From contig JBHLOI010000080.1 of assembly GCA_048940645.1 (NCBI GenBank), positions 1 to 12,975 of the forward strand: a stretch of DNA of 12,975 bases, written 5' to 3'. The position numbers and the translations under genes are program-made. Positions 2,269 through 12,317 of the stretch are shown piece after piece; within the stretch, counting starts at the first letter, position 1, and each line of letters opens with the position of its first letter. The DNA is from Promethearchaeota archaeon (GTDB lineage: Archaea > Asgardarchaeota > Lokiarchaeia > Sigyniarchaeales > SOKP01). The notes under the pieces are model-generated. The model was given only the letters and a program-made list of their open reading frames with translations, had not been told where the DNA came from and searched no databases.

Positions 2269-2781
2269 ATGAGTGAACAAGAACCTCCAAGACCAAACGG
2301 ATTACCAGTTGGTTCTAAGGCACCTTTATTTGATACTACCGATATCTATGAGAATAATGTAAATTTAGATAAGTTATTAAAATTATACAATGGAGTACTT
2401 ATTGATTTTTTTCGAGGTAACTGGTGAAATCATTGCAAAACTCATTTAAGTCTACTTACAGAATTTAAATCTGAATTTGAAAAACGGAATATTAAGGTGA
2501 TATCCATAGCAAGTGACAGTCCAAGGCTTTTGAAAAGTTTTAAAGAAGAAAACAATTTTGATATTGATATTATATCTGACCGAAAAACCAAAATTATTAA
2601 GGATTATGATGTATATTGGTTTGCTCCCGGTGGTGCTAAAACTATGAAAGTAAAACAAGCAGTACCCAGTAAATTTTTGATCAACAAAAACAGAGAAATT
2701 GTTTGGACATATATTGGAAAGAATAAAACGGATAGGCCTTCAATAAAATTAATGACAAAAATAATAGATGAAACACTTTAA
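2269..2781 (+). CDS. Selenocysteine-containing peroxiredoxin-like (AhpC/TSA, thioredoxin-fold) protein, UxxC motif, 170 aa
   Basis: Manual translation from ATG 2269 gives MSEQEPPRPNGLPVGSKAPLFDTTDIYENNVNLDKLLKLYNGVLIDFFRGNW*NHCKTHLSLLTEFKSEFEKRNIKVISIASDSP...QAVPSKFLINKNREIVWTYIGKNKTDRPS...ETL. The only internal stop (TGA 2425-2427, codon 53) sits at the first Cys of the Prx-like F[YF]RGxWCxxC motif. The frame continues into the track ORF 2497..2781, and a SECIS follows the stop. Confidence 0.93.
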
Positions 2782-2852
2782 AATCCCTATAAGAATGATT
2801 TGAACATAGAAAAATTAGATGTTTAAGGACTGCCTAGCAAGGGTAAGGGATT
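2782..2852 (+). promoter_or_regulatory. Eukaryote-like SECIS element in the 3' UTR
   Basis: Helix I: AATCCCT (2782-2788) / AGGGATT (2846-2852). Core: ATGAT (2795-2799) / GGAC (2827-2830), giving tandem G.A/A.G pairs. Helix II: TTGAACAT (2800-2807) / ATGTTTAA (2819-2826). Apical AAAAA (2810-2814) is separated from ATGA by 11 nt. Confidence 0.85.
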
Positions 2853-2870: not shown

Positions 2871-3701
2871 TTAGCTCTCATAATATTTATAAAATCCTTT
2901 TCCTGTCTTTCTTCCCAAATCTCCTCTATCAACCATGTTCTTGAGTTCTTGAGGTGGTTTATCATTTGGATCTCCGCTTTCCTTATAATAAGACATCTCT
3001 ACATCATAAATAATATCTAAACCAACATTATCCATAATCTCAAATGGTCCAATACCCATATGGGTAAATATTTTCCATGCTTTATCAATTGTTTCGATAT
3101 CTGCTACACCTGCAGCCCACATTTTTAAGCAATCTTTCTTAACTGATCTCCACATTCTGTTAAACACAAATCCAAAACTTTCTTTTTTCAAAATTATTGG
3201 AGTTATATCAATACTTTGAACGAAATTAACCCCAATTTTAAATGTTTCATCTGAGGTTTCTGTACCTCTCATTATATCAGCCATGGGTAAGGCATATAAG
3301 TTATAAAAGTGAAGGTTTAATACCTTCTCTTTCCTGTCTACAACATCCTCTATTCTTGAGACTGGAAATGATGAACTATTAGTAGCAATAATAGCATAAG
3401 ATGGAGCTGCTTTATCTATTTGAGAAAATATATCTTTTTTTAATTCCAATTTTTCTGGCACAGCTTCTATAATCAGATCAGCATCTGTTATAGCTTCAGC
3501 AAGAGTGTCATGAAGGGTTACTTCCCCAGGAATACCTTTCATTTTTTTCTTTCGATTCATTCTTCTTACAAACTTCTCTAAAAAATTCCTGACTGTATCA
3601 TAAACACGTACAGAATATCCACTCATAGCAGTTCGTTCTATTATTTGTTGACCCATTGTACCGGCTCCTACTATAGCTACAATATTAATTTTCTTAACCA
3701 T
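2871..3701 (-). CDS. 3-hydroxyacyl-CoA dehydrogenase family protein (NAD-binding), 276 aa
   Basis: Rossmann motif VAIVGAGTMG, DLIIEAVPEKLELKK, ATNSSS, HFYN, GFVFNR, GPFEIMDNVGLD and GDLGRKTGKGFY. Start moved from 3761 to ATG 3701 (MVKKINIVAIVG) because the extra 20 codons of the track ORF cover AT-rich promoter sequence. Confidence 0.9.
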   Translation of the reverse strand: MVKKINIVAIVGAGTMGQQIIERTAMSGYSVRVYDTVRNFLEKFVRRMNRKKKMKGIPGEVTLHDTLAEAITDADLIIEAVPEKLELKKDIFSQIDKAAPSYAIIATNSSSFPVSRIEDVVDRKEKVLNLHFYNLYALPMADIMRGTETSDETFKIGVNFVQSIDITPIILKKESFGFVFNRMWRSVKKDCLKMWAAGVADIETIDKAWKIFTHMGIGPFEIMDNVGLDIIYDVEMSYYKESGDPNDKPPQELKNMVDRGDLGRKTGKGFYKYYES

Positions 3702-3736
3702 CTTATATCTACCAAATCTCCCTAAAGTATACAATA

Positions 3737-3770
3737 TTTTTATATAATAGATAAACCTCAATTTATATTA
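3737..3770. promoter_or_regulatory. Divergent promoter region with back-to-back TATA-like boxes
   Basis: TTATATA on the - strand (3741-3747) and TTTATATT on the + strand (3762-3769), each about 40 nt upstream of its divergent ATG (3701, 3811). Confidence 0.35.
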
Positions 3771-3810: not shown

Positions 3811-4755
3811 ATGGAGATTAATAAAATAAGAAATGTATTGGTTGTTGGTGCTGGCACTATGGGTCATGCTATTGCCCAAGTTTACGCACAACATGGCTTT
3901 GATGTGTTTTTAATTGATTTAGACCAAAAAATGTTAGATCATGCCCTCACCTTGATAAAATCTAATTTAGAATTATTGTTAGAACATAATAAATTAAGGG
4001 AAGAGATTACCTCAATATTTAACCATATTCATACGTCCACGAATATTGAAGGATTTGCTTCAGAGGTAGACTTAGCCATCGAAGCTGTAAATGAAGTTCC
4101 TGAAATTAAGAGGAAAGTATTTAAACAATTAGATAAATTCTGTTCTCAAGATACGATTTTAGTAAGTAATACCTCTGGTTTAAATATTTTTGAAATTGCT
4201 GACGTTAGTTATCCTCAACGAATAATTATACATCATTGGTTTTGCCCAGCCTACATAATGCCATTGGTAGAAATTGTACCCGGTCCGAGTACATCCTCTG
4301 AAATAATTAATTTATCCGTTCAATTAATGAAAATACTTGGTAAAAAACCAATTGTATTAAATGAGTATGTTGATAATTTCATTGTTAATCGAATTCAGAG
4401 AGTTATTATGGTACAAGCATGGGAAATGATTCAAAAGGGTTGGGCCACTCCTGAACAAATAGACTATGCTGTAAAGACCGTTTTAGGGGTAAGACTTCCT
4501 GTGCAAGGAATAGTACAATCCCAAGATTTTACAGGACTTGATTTAATTTTAGACAAGCAAAAAGAATTTAGGACAAATAAACGTTATCCTCAAGTCCAAG
4601 AATTAGTAGAACAAGGAAACTTAGGAGTGAAATCAGGTAAGGGTTTTTATAATTATGGTGATAAGACAGAATTAGAAGTTCTTAGAAAAAGAGATGAACT
4701 CTGTTTGAAAATGCTGGATTATCTTGAACGATTAAAATTATTTGACCCTCTCTAA
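3811..4755 (+). CDS. 3-hydroxyacyl-CoA dehydrogenase family protein
   Basis: VLVVGAGTMG, DLAIEAVNE, SNTSGL, HWFCPAYIMPLVE (catalytic His/Glu), FIVNRIQ, DFTGLD and GNLGVKSGKGFY. Confidence 0.92.
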   Translation: MEINKIRNVLVVGAGTMGHAIAQVYAQHGFDVFLIDLDQKMLDHALTLIKSNLELLLEHNKLREEITSIFNHIHTSTNIEGFASEVDLAIEAVNEVPEIKRKVFKQLDKFCSQDTILVSNTSGLNIFEIADVSYPQRIIIHHWFCPAYIMPLVEIVPGPSTSSEIINLSVQLMKILGKKPIVLNEYVDNFIVNRIQRVIMVQAWEMIQKGWATPEQIDYAVKTVLGVRLPVQGIVQSQDFTGLDLILDKQKEFRTNKRYPQVQELVEQGNLGVKSGKGFYNYGDKTELEVLRKRDELCLKMLDYLERLKLFDPL

Positions 4756-4772
4756 AATATTAATCAAAAAGA

Positions 4773-5876
4773 TTATTCTACTTTTTTAATCATTTCTTGT
4801 TTATATCCAGTTATTACCTTTACCAAACCCTTAAGTGATTTATCGATTTCAAAATCTCCTGTATCAACTCGTAGGCATTCTAGATTTCTTATTTTTTCTT
4901 TTGTTGAAATGATTATCATATTTTCTTTACCGACTTTTTTTATCACTGGAGGGGTAAATTGCTTATTTCCTCTTCCAAAAATAAAACCTTGCCCTCCAAT
5001 TGGCGTTACAACAATTTTTACTTTTCCGTATTTTTCTAATAACTTTAAAATTGCCTTTTCATTTAAATCAGCTCCAATAAATTCTTTATTATATATTGCA
5101 TCAACTCCGAACAAATTTTTTTTTAAATGCAAATGGTCTGTAATTGATTTAACAGTTGTTCCAGGGCCTAATAAATATAGTGTATCATCTTCCATTTTCT
5201 CTATTACATCTAAAGCGATTTCATGTTTATTTTCTTCAACAGAACTTCCTATTATAGAACCGTCTTTACTAGATTGGATTAACTTTTGAATTTTAGGGAC
5301 TTTCAAAAAACCATATAATTTTGAATCTAATCTTCCTTGACGAAATGAATCTTCATTTATATCTAAAACTTCTCTTTCTTCAGTATCTATATTTTCCATT
5401 AAGAAAGCTTCAAAAAGTTGAGCAGCAGCTCTGGGATTTAGAGCAAATATAGAACTAAACATTTTTACTCCTGAAGGGATTGCAATAACTGGTTTCTTCA
5501 TATCAATCGCGTCGTAGATATCTCTTGCAGTCCCATCTCCTCCACAAAATATTAATAATTCGATTTCCTTCTTCAGCATGGTTTTTGCTATTCTTATTGT
5601 ATCTTCTGAGGTTGTTTCAATCCCGATTTTATCAATTACCTCAAACTTATATTTATGGGGTTTAATAAGATCTTCTCCCATTTTGCCAGGAGCTACTAAG
5701 AAATAAAAATCATCTACATCTTTTAGATTAGAGAAAAATTCCATCATTCGAGAAGGAGCTATAGGAGTAGCGCCCATCTTTAAAGCTTGTTTATAAATAT
5801 CTCCATCTGTACCTTTTAAACCTACACTGCCTCCCATTCCGGCGATAGGATTGACGATTAATCCTATTTTTTTCAT
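4773..5876 (-). CDS. ATP-NAD kinase family (AcoX-like) protein
   Basis: IGLIVNPIAGMGGSVGLKGTDG, GGDGTARD, IPSGVKMFS, LGPGTT, TPIGGQGFIFGRGNKQ and LRVDTGD are typical of this archaeal/bacterial subfamily. Confidence 0.9.
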   Translation of the reverse strand: MKKIGLIVNPIAGMGGSVGLKGTDGDIYKQALKMGATPIAPSRMMEFFSNLKDVDDFYFLVAPGKMGEDLIKPHKYKFEVIDKIGIETTSEDTIRIAKTMLKKEIELLIFCGGDGTARDIYDAIDMKKPVIAIPSGVKMFSSIFALNPRAAAQLFEAFLMENIDTEEREVLDINEDSFRQGRLDSKLYGFLKVPKIQKLIQSSKDGSIIGSSVEENKHEIALDVIEKMEDDTLYLLGPGTTVKSITDHLHLKKNLFGVDAIYNKEFIGADLNEKAILKLLEKYGKVKIVVTPIGGQGFIFGRGNKQFTPPVIKKVGKENMIIISTKEKIRNLECLRVDTGDFEIDKSLKGLVKVITGYKQEMIKKVE

Positions 5877-5998: not shown

Positions 5999-7957
5999 CT
6001 AAGTAATGATGGGGATACTTTTATCTATGAAGATTTTGGTTATCAAAGGTTCAAGAGAAGGGATATCTTTCATCTGAATTTCCTTGTTTAATCGGTAAAA
6101 TTCCCTAAAAGTCTGCCAAGCATCTTTATCTTCCTTTAATTCTTCAATGAAAAATCTAATCCTCTGTTGTGCCGAATATGATTGCCCTTTAAATAAATAA
6201 CACACTAGAAAGGGATAAAGTGAATTCATAATAATAGTATATTCCCCAAAGTTAGCCCTATTGAGACCCTCAGAGAAGATCTCATCACTAAAGGAATTTA
6301 TAGCTGTTAAAAAACCTCCAAAAAGATGATCCTCGAAAGACCACTCTTTTACAAATGATTCAGAGAAGATAGGTGTCCCACCCTCTGAAATAATCAGAAG
6401 AATGATAGGGTCTTCATCAGTAAGCTTAGGCACAATAATTTCCCGTTTTCGAATCATTCTCTCCATCTGCTCATTTGGGCGCGCTAACTCCATACGTTTG
6501 GATAATGGTGCTTTTGATACTTTTAATTTATCCCATACATCTAATTTTTTGAGTAATTCATCATGCTCGTTTGATATTTTAATTGCTAACCGATTAAGTC
6601 CATAATTTTCTGCTATTTCCTGAGCTTTAGTCAAGAATTGCCGAGCTTTTATCATATTTAAGGTGATTAATGACAATCTTGCTTGTAATAAATATGTTTC
6701 CGCTAATAAGGAATAAGAGCGTGTGTTTTTAACATTGTCAAATAATTGAGAAATATAAACTTGTAATTCACCTAATATTTCTGGTTCATTAGTCTCATAT
6801 AATTCAATTAGAAGTAAATCACACAGATTAAGGAGAGCTTTTTTTAAAGCTTCAAGAAAAGTGATTCCTTCTTCAATTAATTGTTTTAACATCTCTTCAG
6901 CCTTACCCCGATTGAAAGCGCGGGGGCTATTTTTCAGGTATACTGCCCTATCTATGCGATAGAGTTGATTAAATAAATGCTTTTCATTCTCTTCTCGATC
7001 GGCGATTTGTTTCATTCGATTCAAATATCGCTGTGCCATTTCCAGATCGTTCATATCCAGAGATAAATGAAATAAAGTATCAGAAACAAAAAGTATTTCA
7101 AGATTTCTACCGCGCTTTTCCTTAAGAGTTATACTTTTTTCCAAATTTTCTAAAGCTCGGGAGAAATCTCCTTTTTCTTGGTAATTAATCCCAATATTAT
7201 TGTACATATTTGACATTAAATATAAATCATTTGCTTTCTCTGCGAATGCTAAAACTTTTTCAAAGTAACAAAGAGCCAGATCTAATTCACCTTTCAACCC
7301 GTAAATAGCTCCAAATTGCGCATCACACTGATGAATAATTTGCTTTAAGTTAAGATTCTTAGCAAGAATTTTACATGATTCTAAATATTCTGAAGCATGG
7401 TTTAAGTCTCCACTTTTCCAGGAAAGCTCTCCAAGTTGTAAAAGAGAAAAAATAATATCCGTATTGATCTCGAGTTCTTGTCGTAATGCTAGAGCTTGTT
7501 CTGCATATTCTATGCTTTTTTCTAATTCTCCTTTAAGGGGATAAGTCCAGCCTTTTATATATAGAATATCTGCCTCTCTTTTTTTGAGTTCTGTGGATAA
7601 CTCTTGGGGAAGGGTCTTCAGTAATTCTTCACATTTTTTGATAAACTTAACAGATTCATTTACCTTTGACAAAGCAAGGGTATTTGCCATTTGAATATAG
7701 ACATCAAGTAACAAAAGGGAATTTTCAAGCTTTTGACTTTCACGATAAGCCTTTTCGGCATATTTTGCAATTTCATTAATATCAGAAAAATAACGCCTAG
7801 CTAGTTTACTTTTAAACGTATAATAAGATATCCGCTCATGAGAAGAGAGATCCTTTTTCTTTCCAAAATCGTTTACTATTCGAAGAGCTTTTTCAATATT
7901 ACCTTCTTCAATGAACTTTTTTGCTCGAATTAGTTCCTTTGGCTCTGAATAAGACAT
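5999..7957 (-). CDS. Tetratricopeptide-repeat protein with a C-terminal longin-like domain (Lokiarchaeia-type family)
   Basis: Several TPR-like helices (GELEKSIEYAEQAL, GDLNHASEYLE, GELDLALCYFEKVL, NNIGINYQEKGDFSRALENLEKS). The last ~135 aa (PIILLIISEGGTPIFS...LFGGFLTAINSFSDEIF) follow the longin beta-beta-alpha pattern. Confidence 0.85.
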   Translation of the reverse strand: MSYSEPKELIRAKKFIEEGNIEKALRIVNDFGKKKDLSSHERISYYTFKSKLARRYFSDINEIAKYAEKAYRESQKLENSLLLLDVYIQMANTLALSKVNESVKFIKKCEELLKTLPQELSTELKKREADILYIKGWTYPLKGELEKSIEYAEQALALRQELEINTDIIFSLLQLGELSWKSGDLNHASEYLESCKILAKNLNLKQIIHQCDAQFGAIYGLKGELDLALCYFEKVLAFAEKANDLYLMSNMYNNIGINYQEKGDFSRALENLEKSITLKEKRGRNLEILFVSDTLFHLSLDMNDLEMAQRYLNRMKQIADREENEKHLFNQLYRIDRAVYLKNSPRAFNRGKAEEMLKQLIEEGITFLEALKKALLNLCDLLLIELYETNEPEILGELQVYISQLFDNVKNTRSYSLLAETYLLQARLSLITLNMIKARQFLTKAQEIAENYGLNRLAIKISNEHDELLKKLDVWDKLKVSKAPLSKRMELARPNEQMERMIRKREIIVPKLTDEDPIILLIISEGGTPIFSESFVKEWSFEDHLFGGFLTAINSFSDEIFSEGLNRANFGEYTIIMNSLYPFLVCYLFKGQSYSAQQRIRFFIEELKEDKDAWQTFREFYRLNKEIQMKDIPSLEPLITKIFIDKSIPIIT

Positions 7958-8792: not shown

Positions 8793-9647
8793 TTAAATTT
8801 TTCTTCCTGTTTTTCTCCTTGCTCTTTTGTAAAGTCTATCTAATACACCACGCATATCATCAGGATTTTCCCTCATCGTTTTTAATTGAATAGCGGCATC
8901 CCCTGGTAGGATTTCAAAACGTTCTTCTAAAATCTTCTCAATAAATTCACCAGCTACTTCTTCAGCTGTCATTAATCCACCTGATTCTGAAATTATTGCG
9001 CATTCTGGGGGTTTAAATTTATTTTCTTCGGCAAAACCGGGAGTGTCCGTATCAGTAGGAAAAAGGATTGAAACTTTAATATTATAAGGTAATAATTCAT
9101 GTCGTAAAGCCTCTGCTAATCCAAAAATAGCATATTTAGTCGGAGCATAAGTTACAAATCCCATAATCCCCATAAATCCCATAACTGAAGATGTAAAAGA
9201 TATATGTCCATTTTTTGCTTCCATAAAGTAGGGTAAAATGATGAGGGTGGGAACCAGTTGTCCATAGTAGTTAATATTCATATTTGTTTTAAAATCTTCA
9301 AGGGTTAATTTTTCAAGATATTGCGCATAAGCAAAACCTACAAAATTAAATAGATAATCTGGAATTTTATTTCTTTTAATTATATCCGTTAAAAGTGGTT
9401 TCAATTTATTCATATCTGTAGCATCGCAAGCAATAATCTCAATAAACTGGGAATCATCAAGTTTTAATTTATTACATTCAGTTTGAGTTTCTTTTAATGC
9501 ATCCAACCCTCTCGCAATAATACAAACACTCCCTCCTAATTGGACAAATAACTTTGCTACTGCTTTCCCCATCCCTTTGGAGCCACCAGGAATAATTGCA
9601 TACTTTCCTTTAAAGGCTTCCTGAGCTAATAATTCTTCATCCGCCAT
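8793..9647 (-). CDS. Short-chain dehydrogenase, 3-ketodihydrosphingosine reductase (KDSR/Tsc10)-like
   Basis: PGGSKGMG, IIAR (NADPH-type), SSVMG, catalytic YAPTK and the KDSR-subfamily signature FPTDTDTPGFAEENKFKP. Confidence 0.85.
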   Translation of the reverse strand: MADEELLAQEAFKGKYAIIPGGSKGMGKAVAKLFVQLGGSVCIIARGLDALKETQTECNKLKLDDSQFIEIIACDATDMNKLKPLLTDIIKRNKIPDYLFNFVGFAYAQYLEKLTLEDFKTNMNINYYGQLVPTLIILPYFMEAKNGHISFTSSVMGFMGIMGFVTYAPTKYAIFGLAEALRHELLPYNIKVSILFPTDTDTPGFAEENKFKPPECAIISESGGLMTAEEVAGEFIEKILEERFEILPGDAAIQLKTMRENPDDMRGVLDRLYKRARRKTGRKI

Positions 9648-9722: not shown

Positions 9723-10535
9723 TTAGATTTCAGATTTAAAATAATAAGCTGGAACACCAACTTCAGCTATGCCTCCGTCAATTGGGAAATTATGTCCAGT
9801 TATGAAATCCGATAATTTAGATGCCAAAAATAATACAACATTTACAACATCTTCTACAGTTCCCATTCGATTTAATGGAGTTTTAACATGACCATCATCC
9901 ATTATCATTTTAACTACATCCTCTCTATTATCATAAATTCCAGTTATATGATACCCTGGAGAAATTGAATTAACGGTTATTTTTGGAGCAAGACTTTGAG
10001 ATAACATTTGAACCATAGCAATAATTCCAACTTTACTTAAGGAGTAAACAGGAGTCTTATTATCGATTTTCATTCCTGCAATTGATGCGGTGTGAATTAC
10101 CTTTCCTGCTAAGGGTTCAAAAGTCTGCTTTTTCATTCTTTTACATATACTTTTAGAAACTAACCACTGACCTTTAAGATTTATTCCTAAAATTCTGTCC
10201 CAATCTTTTTCTTTTGTTCTTAATAAATCCATTCCATATGGATATCCTACTCCCGCATTATTGAATAAAAGGTAAACATTTTCTAGGTCTTGGAATGCTT
10301 CTTTTGCCATTTCTTCTACTTGATCTGATTTTGAAACATCGCAAACGATAGGAATGACTTTTTGATTTGTTTTTTGAGTAATTTTTTTACTTGTTTCTAC
10401 TAATAACTCTTCATTAATATCTACTAATACTAAATCTGCTCCTCGTTCAGCAAAAGCAAGTGCTACACCCTTACCAAACCCCGAAGCACCTCCAGTGATT
10501 AAAGCACCTTTTCCTTCAAGAAATTTTTCAATCAT
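9723..10535 (-). CDS. Classical SDR oxidoreductase (FabG-like, NAD-preferring)
   Basis: TGGASGFG, LVD (acidic residue indicating NAD), FNNAG, catalytic YSLSK, VNSISPG, PLNRMG and ITGHNFPIDGG. Confidence 0.92.
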   Translation of the reverse strand: MIEKFLEGKGALITGGASGFGKGVALAFAERGADLVLVDINEELLVETSKKITQKTNQKVIPIVCDVSKSDQVEEMAKEAFQDLENVYLLFNNAGVGYPYGMDLLRTKEKDWDRILGINLKGQWLVSKSICKRMKKQTFEPLAGKVIHTASIAGMKIDNKTPVYSLSKVGIIAMVQMLSQSLAPKITVNSISPGYHITGIYDNREDVVKMIMDDGHVKTPLNRMGTVEDVVNVVLFLASKLSDFITGHNFPIDGGIAEVGVPAYYFKSEI

Positions 10536-10736: not shown

Positions 10737-12317
10737 ATGGTTGATAAAATTATTCCTTTCTTAATTAATATCTCTGAAGTCATTTCTGCTCGTTCTAGAG
10801 CTACTTTACTGGATGAAATGGCGATGGCATTAATCGAATGTATAAATATTTATGGTAAAACACTTAATAAGCTAGGAAAAATAAATAGAATTTCCGTTTG
10901 TTTCTGGCCAGTGAAATTAGTACCTTTAAATGAAACTAGAGCGTGTGTATGCAGCTACTTACTAAATAAGCAAGAGAAATTTAATTTTGGTAAATTTTCT
11001 CAAATGCCACCACCGCCCCAAAATGTAATAAAGGGCGCGGATCCAGTGTCATTTCTAAATGCTTTACAGTCATATAATAGCGGTTACTTAAGAAAAAGTA
11101 AATATTTTAGAAGAGGTACCGTAATTCAAGAAGCATTATTTAACGCTAGTGAAGTTGAATATTTTAAGAACTTCTTCTTAAATCAATATGGTATCGGGTC
11201 TTTCGGAGAACCTTACTTTGTTTTGGAAGGAGGACCAATTCCAAAAAGCATTAATCAAGCAAAAATTGTGCCAGAAATTTTAGAATACATTTCTCAAAAA
11301 GATGTTAGAATGCTTGATGATTACGGTACGAGCATTTCAAAACTATGCGAAGTATGGATACAACGAGGAACTCAAGATGCTGATAAGATAAGAGGTAAAA
11401 AAGTGGATACTAGTGAGGAAGAAAAGCAATTAGCCTCACTAAATAAGGAATTGGAGGCTGAAAAAGCAAGAAAAATAGAAACTTCTCCAGAAGAATTAGT
11501 GAAATCAGGAAAGTATAAAATTAATGATAAATCAAGTGATTTTTACAATAATAATAATGCGATTAAAAACAGTATTGATCGCATTAGAAATGCCATAAAT
11601 AAGAATGATTTATTTGAAGTAGAAGAATCAGTTAAGGATTTAGAAATCAAATATCAAGATTTAGGCAATTCAATAAGTAGATATACAAGTGAACTTGCTC
11701 AATTAAGAAAAAATGTTCAGAAAGAAATAAGCGATTTAGAGAAGACTAAGCAACAAAAGATTAGAGAGTTAGAGAAAAAAATATCAGAAGTGAAAAGTAA
11801 AATTGACTCGAAGCATAGTGAATTAAGCAGTGATTTAACCAGTGCTGAGGATACGGTTGCTAAAATAAAATTAGAAAAACAATCTTGCTTAGATAATCTC
11901 GAGAAGGTAAAAGATAGCGAGATGACAGGAGTTCAAGATTTTTTTAAGAATTATTCTATAGAAATTAAAACTCAAAATGTAGTTGTTGGAGTCCCAATGT
12001 TCATTTTTTACTTTATAAACCCCAATACACGTAGAACAACAGAGAGGGCTCCTGTATTACCTATGCTTATCGAAAAAGGTAAAATTCATAGAACCAAAGT
12101 TACAGATGCTTTTAGAACTAAATTGAGAGATTTAATGAATAAAGATAACGCAATGATAAATCTTGTTGAAAAAGGTGGAGAAACTGGTAATCTTATGGAT
12201 ATAAAGAATCTCGATACTCAACTTGATGAAGCTATTAATGATTTACGTATAAGGAAGGTACTAGGTAAAAAAGAAGCTGAAAAAGCTAAGGATGTTATTA
12301 ATAATTTAGTATGGTAG
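10737..12317 (+). CDS. Uncharacterised coiled-coil protein
   Basis: 526-aa ORF with a GTGAT motif upstream. A K/E/Q-rich heptad region (aa ~225-395) is flanked by globular N- and C-terminal parts; T tracts follow the stop. Confidence 0.85.
   Translation: MVDKIIPFLINISEVISARSRATLLDEMAMALIECINIYGKTLNKLGKINRISVCFWPVKLVPLNETRACVCSYLLNKQEKFNFGKFSQMPPPPQNVIKGADPVSFLNALQSYNSGYLRKSKYFRRGTVIQEALFNASEVEYFKNFFLNQYGIGSFGEPYFVLEGGPIPKSINQAKIVPEILEYISQKDVRMLDDYGTSISKLCEVWIQRGTQDADKIRGKKVDTSEEEKQLASLNKELEAEKARKIETSPEELVKSGKYKINDKSSDFYNNNNAIKNSIDRIRNAINKNDLFEVEESVKDLEIKYQDLGNSISRYTSELAQLRKNVQKEISDLEKTKQQKIRELEKKISEVKSKIDSKHSELSSDLTSAEDTVAKIKLEKQSCLDNLEKVKDSEMTGVQDFFKNYSIEIKTQNVVVGVPMFIFYFINPNTRRTTERAPVLPMLIEKGKIHRTKVTDAFRTKLRDLMNKDNAMINLVEKGGETGNLMDIKNLDTQLDEAINDLRIRKVLGKKEAEKAKDVINNLVW

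Follow-up and report, generated by a model that had tools for sequence, protein, structure and literature searches.

SECIS elements of the kind named lokiSECIS matter because they link archaeal and eukaryotic selenocysteine (Sec) decoding, and the evolutionary significance of the class has already been published (Mariotti et al., 2016, PMC4989117; Huang et al., 2024, PMC11227280). According to the main text of Mariotti et al. (2016), a lokiSECIS is defined by an AUGA, a 9 bp stem, and a GA after the stem. Its loop comprises 11 nt, of which the first five favor A and the last is an ultraconserved G that usually follows an A, and the elements are located close to the stop codons of PrxL, VhuU, and HdrA–VhuD genes. 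Huang, Xiao, and Zhang surveyed more than 400 Asgard genomes, and their main text describes a type I eSECIS-like element as the major form for prxL, with a stem of 7–15 bp, no more than two mismatches, a loop of 8–20 nt, and a lower stem plus an internal loop (Huang et al., 2024). The euryarchaeal vhuD and hdrA versions of SECIS are also described as carrying AUGA_GA/AA in the main text of Mariotti et al. (2016).

We analyzed a stretch of 12,975 nucleotides, hereafter referred to as the window, and compared its segment 2782–2852 with these descriptions. The AUGA of the window (2795–2798) lies directly 5' of the stem, as published, and the 9 bp stem and 11 nt loop agree with the dimensions of both Mariotti et al. 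and Huang et al. The apical loop AGAAAAAUUAG (2808–2818) follows the published rule of an A-rich start and an A-G end, and G2828 and A2829 provide the GA (or AA) expected 3' of the stem. The element is located just past the stop codon of a gene with an in-frame UGA, in a genome with archaeal/eukaryal-type Sec machinery, and SBP2 was detected neither here nor, according to its main text, in the study of Mariotti et al. (2016). No difference in the defining features was found. An earlier note on this DNA had stated that such elements were published for Lokiarchaeota, and the window's element agrees with each point of Mariotti et al. (2016). The exact PrxL protein of the window is absent from the supplement of Huang et al. 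(2024), which contains an orthologue that is very similar by eye (Lokiarchaeia_GCA_016839745_U_3).

Judged from sequence comparison, it is highly probable that 2782–2852 belongs to the lokiSECIS kind, the eukaryote-like SECIS of type I known from Lokiarchaeia, and that it serves as a 3' UTR signal recoding UGA 2425–2427 as Sec via aSelB and a kink-turn reader. The element is a correct identification of a known kind, and hence a further ordinary, well-supported example. What this instance adds is a cleanly delimited conserved unit consisting of UGA, a 367 nt spacer, the SECIS, and a T-run, together with 50-odd aligned relatives.

The PrxL gene and its in-frame UGA

Translation table 11 splits the reading frame upstream of the element into two ORFs of 52 and 94 aa (2269–2427 and 2497–2781, + strand). 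Readthrough of TGA as selenocysteine (U) joins them into a single Prx-like (PrxL) frame of 170 codons (2269–2781, +), the product of which matched the Pfam families AhpC-TSA (4.9e-23) and Redoxin (1.5e-17). The TGA at 2425–2427 (+), a putative selenocysteine codon that is kept in orthologues, occupies the first position of the redox box U53-N-H-C56 in the context FFRGNW-U-NHCK. For annotation, the two short ORFs are best treated as one 170-residue selenoprotein gene.

The PrxL gene ends with a TAA stop codon (2779–2781), and the AUGA starts 13 nt past it. From UGA 2425–2427 to the AUGA the distance is 367 nt, which, as a distance, bears out the earlier estimate of about 370 nt. The spacer between the PrxL stop and the end of a convergent minus-strand ORF (2871) comprises 89 nt (2782–2870), again as previously noted. 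This convergent ORF is a 3-hydroxyacyl-CoA dehydrogenase gene (2871–3761, −; Pfam 3HCDH_N, 5.5e-40), which bounds the spacer and lies outside the recoding unit. A second, divergent 3-hydroxyacyl-CoA dehydrogenase gene is located at 3811–4755 (+), and the PrxL neighborhood also contains genes for an NAD kinase (4773–5876), a TPR protein (5999–7957), and two short-chain dehydrogenases (8793–9647 and 9723–10535, both −). No Pfam family was assigned to the ORFs at 42–1019, 1188–2162, and 10737–12317.

Predicted structure of the element

In the minimum free energy (MFE) fold, helix I is formed by AAUCCCU (2782–2788), the first base of which adjoins the stop codon, and AGGGAUU (2846–2852); covariation points to the same pairing. 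Helix II pairs 2799–2807 with 2819–2827, as indicated by the MFE fold and covariation, and its 5' strand was also recovered by the pattern scan. It consists of nine pairs without mismatch, seven Watson–Crick and two G-U, and only one of the nine is a G-C pair. The earlier note had described helix II with one G-U; this is true of the inner 8 bp (2800–2807/2819–2826), to which U2799–G2827 adds a ninth pair and a second G-U. In the apical loop, an A5 run (2810–2814) begins after 11 nt from AUGA.

The strand 2793–2798 is predicted to be the bulged strand of a kink-turn, comprising G2793 (−1b), the loop A-A-U (2794–2796), and G2797 and A2798, which engage in sheared pairs. On the opposite strand, 2828–2830 supplies the GA of the G·A/A·G tandem and C2830 (−1n). 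The sheared pairs G2797·A2829 and A2798·G2828 open helix II, and the 3 nt bulge A-A-U is closed by the pair G2793–C2830. Read as sequence, the core G / A-or-G-A-U / G-A … G-A / C is that of a canonical kink-turn with a 3 nt bulge. Helix I, the AUGA/GA core, and the position of the A5 run all agree with what had been noted before.

The same fold contains a third helix, the mini-hairpin UGCCU-AGCAA-GGGUA (2831–2845), inserted in the non-bulged strand as the T-helix of a k-junction-like core. The earlier description as a "two-helix hairpin" is therefore incorrect: as modeled, the three helices form a three-way junction with a k-junction-like core, and not a plain two-helix eukaryotic architecture. 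A T6 run, probably an archaeal oligo-T terminator, lies 3' of the element (2863–2868). Folding of 2775–2870 gave an MFE of −16 kcal/mol with a z of −1.15, 27 of 200 shuffles being as stable; as this value is not significant, folding energy was not counted as support.

Sister elements and Sec machinery in the same genome

The genome (3.83 Mb, 29.8% GC, 89.6% complete) was scanned with a strict pattern of AUGA, a 9 bp stem with at most one mismatch, an 11 nt loop with at least three A in the first five positions and an AG end, and then GA or AA. This pattern occurred 9 times, versus 0, 1, 1, 2, and 0 times in five Markov-1 simulated genomes, and model R1 gave 11 matches in the genome with E below 0.01. 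The covariance model R2 was built from the eight other genomic copies only, with the element of the window left out, which makes the test free of circularity. Of the R2 matches in the window, the element scored best, with 39.5 bits and an E of 2.6e-7. Its second match in the window, 11547–11589 (+) (23.6 bits, E 0.0014), was judged a chance occurrence in AT-rich sequence, because it has no AUGA, sits inside a coding sequence without in-frame TGA (ORF 10737–12317), and was missed by R1.

Most of the other genomic copies are located at or just past the ends of genes with in-frame TGA. Copies lie behind three gene pairs in which an HdrA-type gene (1–4 U) precedes a two-U FlpD/MvhD (VhuD) gene; two of the three VhuD genes had Pfam matches of 1.9e-37 and 1.9e-42, and the third was recognized from the motifs UGYSAADLAG and GU. 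A further HdrA gene, with two U, has an element directly behind it. A VhuU-like ORF of 50 codons with the motif RCFD-C-U-LSCAAH (L024:2888–3040, +, equivalent to G000:C94:43487–43639) is followed by its own SECIS, and its stop codon is the UGA within the AUGA of that SECIS. The main text of Mariotti et al. (2016, PMC4989117) likewise describes a stop within the AUGA of its own SECIS for VhuU.1. The VhuU-like ORF is situated just downstream of a hydrogenase large-subunit-like frame. The comparison with other selenoprotein genes proposed in the earlier note thus came out positive for genes of the hdrA, vhuD, and vhuU types. R1 gave no match to the SelD 3' UTR element of this genome, which fits the published statement that the SPS lokiSECIS differs from the others.

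As for the Sec machinery, a tRNA-Sec gene (C101:14409–14501) lies directly beside a SepSecS gene (476.7 bits). The contig that carries tRNA-Sec also carries a SelB-like gene scoring 235.7 bits, just under the cut-off of 242.25 bits, and a PSTK-like gene scored 168 bits, below its cut-off of 290.5 bits. SelD (187 bits) has an in-frame TGA in G-U-S-C-K. SBP2, the L7Ae-domain protein that recognizes eukaryotic SECIS, had no evident counterpart in a Pfam L7Ae search of this 89.6% complete genome; the matches were two L7Ae-family genes, both short (79 and 47 bits), and a 348 aa frame that scored below threshold. The L7Ae and L30e loci of the genome are on C88 and C52.

Conservation and covariation among orthologues

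A search of species-representative genomes yielded 41 PrxL orthologues with 64–90% identity, nearly all labeled Promethearchaeota/Promethearchaeia or with another Asgard name. TGA was present at the homologous codon in all 41, and also in every match of the phylum sample that spans this codon. AUGA, a 9 bp stem, and an 11 or 12 nt loop were located 2–14 nt past the stop codon in 40 of the 41, and R1 detected the element of the remaining one. Conservation behind Sec-type orthologues, on which the earlier reading depended, was accordingly found in 41/41, with stems that covary.

Covariation was evaluated in a structural alignment of 53 aligned matches. Compensatory changes were seen in 9/9 pairs of helix II, where 90% of cells were paired; in helix I, 6/7 pairs had changed on both sides and 77% of cells were paired. 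Overall pairing reached 85% of cells versus 67% in shuffles, none of 500 shuffles being as good. These figures lean high, because the alignment is itself a fit to the model and the relatedness of the sequences overstates the number of independent events. In a control with the 3' partners slid by 1–3 columns, pairing was 32–51%. The variety of stems with matching partners (UUUGAACAU, CUCGUGUGU, CUUAUGUAU, UCUGGAUGU, and UUCGAGGGU) makes the conclusion of covariation safe all the same. The first pair of helix II was non-canonical in 22 of the 53, as at 3b·3n of kink-turns.

The AUGA was invariant in alignments A1, A2, and A4 and across 51 true elements, as were the AAA and terminal G of the loop among the aligned elements. 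The trinucleotide 3' of helix II was GAC in 49 and AAC in 3 of the 53 aligned matches. At the columns of G2793 and C2830, G and C were found in 51/51 true elements; the sole deviant at the closing pair was the C70 copy, with U and A, and the SelD element has C and G by eye. At the position of helix III, 50/51 elements have a hairpin that begins 1–4 nt past the GAC and whose stem comprises 4 bp or more, two or more of them G-C, versus 29% of shuffled segments. The center of its loop reads G-C/U-N (GCAA, GUGA, GCGA, GCU) and is often GNRA-like in the elements examined. The stem is mostly conserved CC/GG, and covariation consequently argues only weakly for this helix. A run of five or more T was present within about 25 nt 3' of 46/51 elements, versus 16% of random windows, which fits a transcript that includes the whole element. 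One further R1 match, L059:3–80 at 23.4 bits, has no AUGA and was dropped.

Cys-type controls and distribution in the phylum

With filters off, R1 scored no more than 17.8 bits for Cys-type homologues, versus 47–92 bits for Sec-type genes. The Cys-type set contained two own-genome paralogues, five Asgard homologues (27–28% identity), and one bacterial homologue, and the best score, 17.8 bits, was obtained near, not behind, an own-genome paralogue. Since no close Cys-type PrxL orthologue exists among the 151 genomes of the phylum, the contrast between Sec-type and Cys-type genes rests on homologues of at most 28% identity; behind these distant homologues the element is absent, as the earlier note required.

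In the phylum sample of 151 genomes, with an R1 match threshold of E ≤ 1e-5, 31 genomes were positive: G000, all 25 others of the window's family (2–9 matches each), and all five of one other family (one match each). SepSecS was present in 30 of the 31 positive genomes, the exception being 85% complete, and the other 84 SepSecS-negative genomes gave no R1 match. Nor was any match obtained in the Sec-using families f2, f7, f8, f13, and f19, from which it follows that R1 is specific to a family-level variant. Sec-using families negative for R1 fit the reported diversity of Asgard SECIS forms.

Alternative explanations

The core of the window's element is a standard K-turn of the type bound by L7Ae, and snoR21, a C/D-box family, gives the best Rfam match over exactly 2782–2852 (21.6 bits, E 1). 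Both would be expected of a stand-alone kink-turn RNA that has nothing to do with recoding, whether a box C/D sRNA or a regulatory site bound by L7Ae. However, the snoR21 score is far under the gathering threshold of 45 bits and is explained by the shared kink-turn, and the remaining Rfam matches are sub-threshold snoRNA, CRISPR, and miRNA noise. There is no RUGAUGA C box (AAUGAUU is found instead), no CUGA D box near the 3' stem, and no C'/D' boxes or guide, and the 9 bp stem and A-rich 11 nt loop are fixed, unlike those of sRNAs. Strong copies lie 0–14 nt 3' of TGA-containing ORFs in most cases, and within the 151-genome sample they are confined to Sec-using genomes, apart from the one 85%-complete genome without SepSecS. 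We regard this explanation as extremely improbable. The same holds for the view that TGA 2425 genuinely ends translation or arose as a disabling mutation, which would leave a split gene or pseudogene and a relic element. The division of the frame by table 11 is what this view would predict, but the TGA sits exactly on the first redox-box position and is kept in 41/41 orthologues, which are as little as 64% identical and in which the frames flanking the codon are uninterrupted. Moreover, the genome has tRNA-Sec, SepSecS, and a SelD with its own TGA, plus SelB- and PSTK-like genes.

Hardly more credible is a mere 3'-end hairpin of convergent genes with a role in termination or mRNA stability, whose SECIS-like letters would be coincidental. 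The hairpin does fill the spacer between convergent genes with a T6 run behind it, and its AU-rich stem does not exceed shuffles in stability. Nevertheless, in a generic hairpin, covariation of the stems would not go along with invariance of AUGA, GA(C), AAA, and the terminal loop G, and the motif occurs at about 10 times expectation, with most copies behind TGA-containing genes. Helix I, which covaries, closes only after helix III, so that the transcript must continue past it. A terminator scan found nothing here, although a sigma-70/intrinsic-terminator scan is uninformative for an archaeon.

Proposed mechanism of UGA recoding

If 2782–2852 acts as a lokiSECIS, the PrxL transcript would run through the element to the T6 run, and the RNA would fold into the three-way junction of helices I (2782–2788/2846–2852), II (2799–2807/2819–2827), and III (2831–2845). 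On the eukaryotic model, an archaeal factor would bind both the kinked core and the 11 nt loop with its A-rich start; candidates are a protein with the L7Ae fold, the ribosome, and aSelB. This factor would deliver SelB/EFSec–GTP–Sec-tRNASec to a ribosome paused at UGA 2425–2427, such that selenocysteine, instead of termination, would enter the U-x-x-C redox box. What the sequences show directly are the features of the element, their conservation and covariation, their association with TGA-containing genes, and the Sec machinery of the genome; we infer that the element is transcribed, folds in this way in the cell, is bound by such a partner, and brings about Sec insertion.

Comparison with other SECIS elements and the k-junction

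The element resembles eukaryotic SECIS (SECIS_1, form 1) in several respects. By analogy, it would act from the 3' UTR at a distance, here 367 nt; it shares the AUGA_GA non-Watson–Crick kink-turn core and a lower helix I; and its apical loop contains adenines that are unpaired and keep a set spacing to the core. In contrast to eukaryotic SECIS, the upper stem of the window's element is shorter (9 bp), the element class abuts or overlaps the stop codon, and the 3' strand carries a third helix across from the bulge. The Rfam SECIS families gave no match, either at the gathering score or at E up to 10, in agreement with the main text of Mariotti et al. (2016, PMC4989117). The previous reading as a eukaryote-like SECIS behind an archaeal selenoprotein gene is supported, with the AUGA_GA quartet and the apical adenines present; the third hairpin and the failure of the Rfam SECIS models to match speak against a plain two-helix eukaryotic architecture.

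With euryarchaeal SECIS (Methanococcales/Methanopyrus), the element shares an archaeal 3' UTR location and the aSelB, PSTK, and SepSecS machinery. However, the fold of 2775–2870 has neither the GAA_A bulge nor consecutive G-C pairs in the upper stem, and the distinction from the methanogen GAA/A type drawn in the earlier note was therefore justified.

A further likeness is to the k-junction of the TPP riboswitch (Wang, Daldrop, Huang, and Lilley, 2014, PMC4005666), in which G·A/A·G pairs also open the NC helix; this likeness is one of secondary structure only. Unlike the k-junction, the window has 4–5 unpaired nt between helix I and the G-C closing pair, and the biological roles are unrelated. 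Helix III and the invariant G-C closing pair are not mentioned in the main texts of Mariotti et al. (2016) and Huang et al. (2024), the figures and the Mariotti supplement being places where they may appear, and a literature search found no paper combining SECIS, Asgard, and three-way junction. Helix III together with the G-C-closed bulge is possibly an undescribed detail, not a discovery. Helix III might make the Loki-family SECIS core a k-junction with an invariant G-C-closed bulge that serves as a required recognition module for an archaeal SECIS-binding factor and was lost toward the two-helix eukaryotic SECIS; we put this forward tentatively and consider it rather unlikely. The kink-turn with a G-C-closed 3 nt bulge and a third helix may guide experiments on the archaeal SECIS-binding factor.

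Additional elements and loci

By eye, the SelD element of this genome (L002:2506–2590, +, equivalent to G000:C76:32449–32533) has the same three-way plan, although its unconstrained MFE fold differs. It comprises helix I AGAUG/CAUCU, a UUGA…GA core closed by C-G, a 7 bp stem, an AAA bulge plus a ministem CACC/GGUG (type II-like), and the helix III hairpin CCACC-UGCGA-GGUGG.

A strong lokiSECIS at L019:2989–3072 (+) (G000:C11:63388–63471; R1 65.1 bits) lies in an AT-rich spacer, upstream of which there is no obvious long TGA ORF, only a small CxxC…CxxC micro-ORF ending in K-UGA-UAA. At three orthologous loci, L050:2752–2832, L056:2735–2815, and L063:2704–2784, a second full-scoring element (84–85 bits) was found about 700 nt downstream of the first, which suggests tandem PrxL selenoprotein genes in those MAGs. 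Near-identical Loki-type PrxL and SECIS loci were also found in MAGs labeled Nanopelagicaceae bacterium, Hodarchaeota, Odinarchaeota, and Thorarchaeota (L040 (DATKTW010000172.1), L029, L030, and L061); these labels are probably artefacts of binning or labeling.

Two small predicted membrane ORFs with clustered TGA, LQL-U-G-U-GG-U-YY and GGG-U-GC, are each followed by an R1 match (G000:C121:12402–12482, −, 40.4 bits, and G000:C120:11717–11797, +, L026, 64.3 bits). Finally, an ORF of 111 codons (L021:2667–3002, +, on G000:C57) contains adjacent Sec codons in PDVG-C-U-U-EKV, has no Pfam family, and is followed 8 nt downstream by a lokiSECIS-type element (C57:32994–33068; R1 38 bits). It is a candidate for a selenoprotein family without a name.
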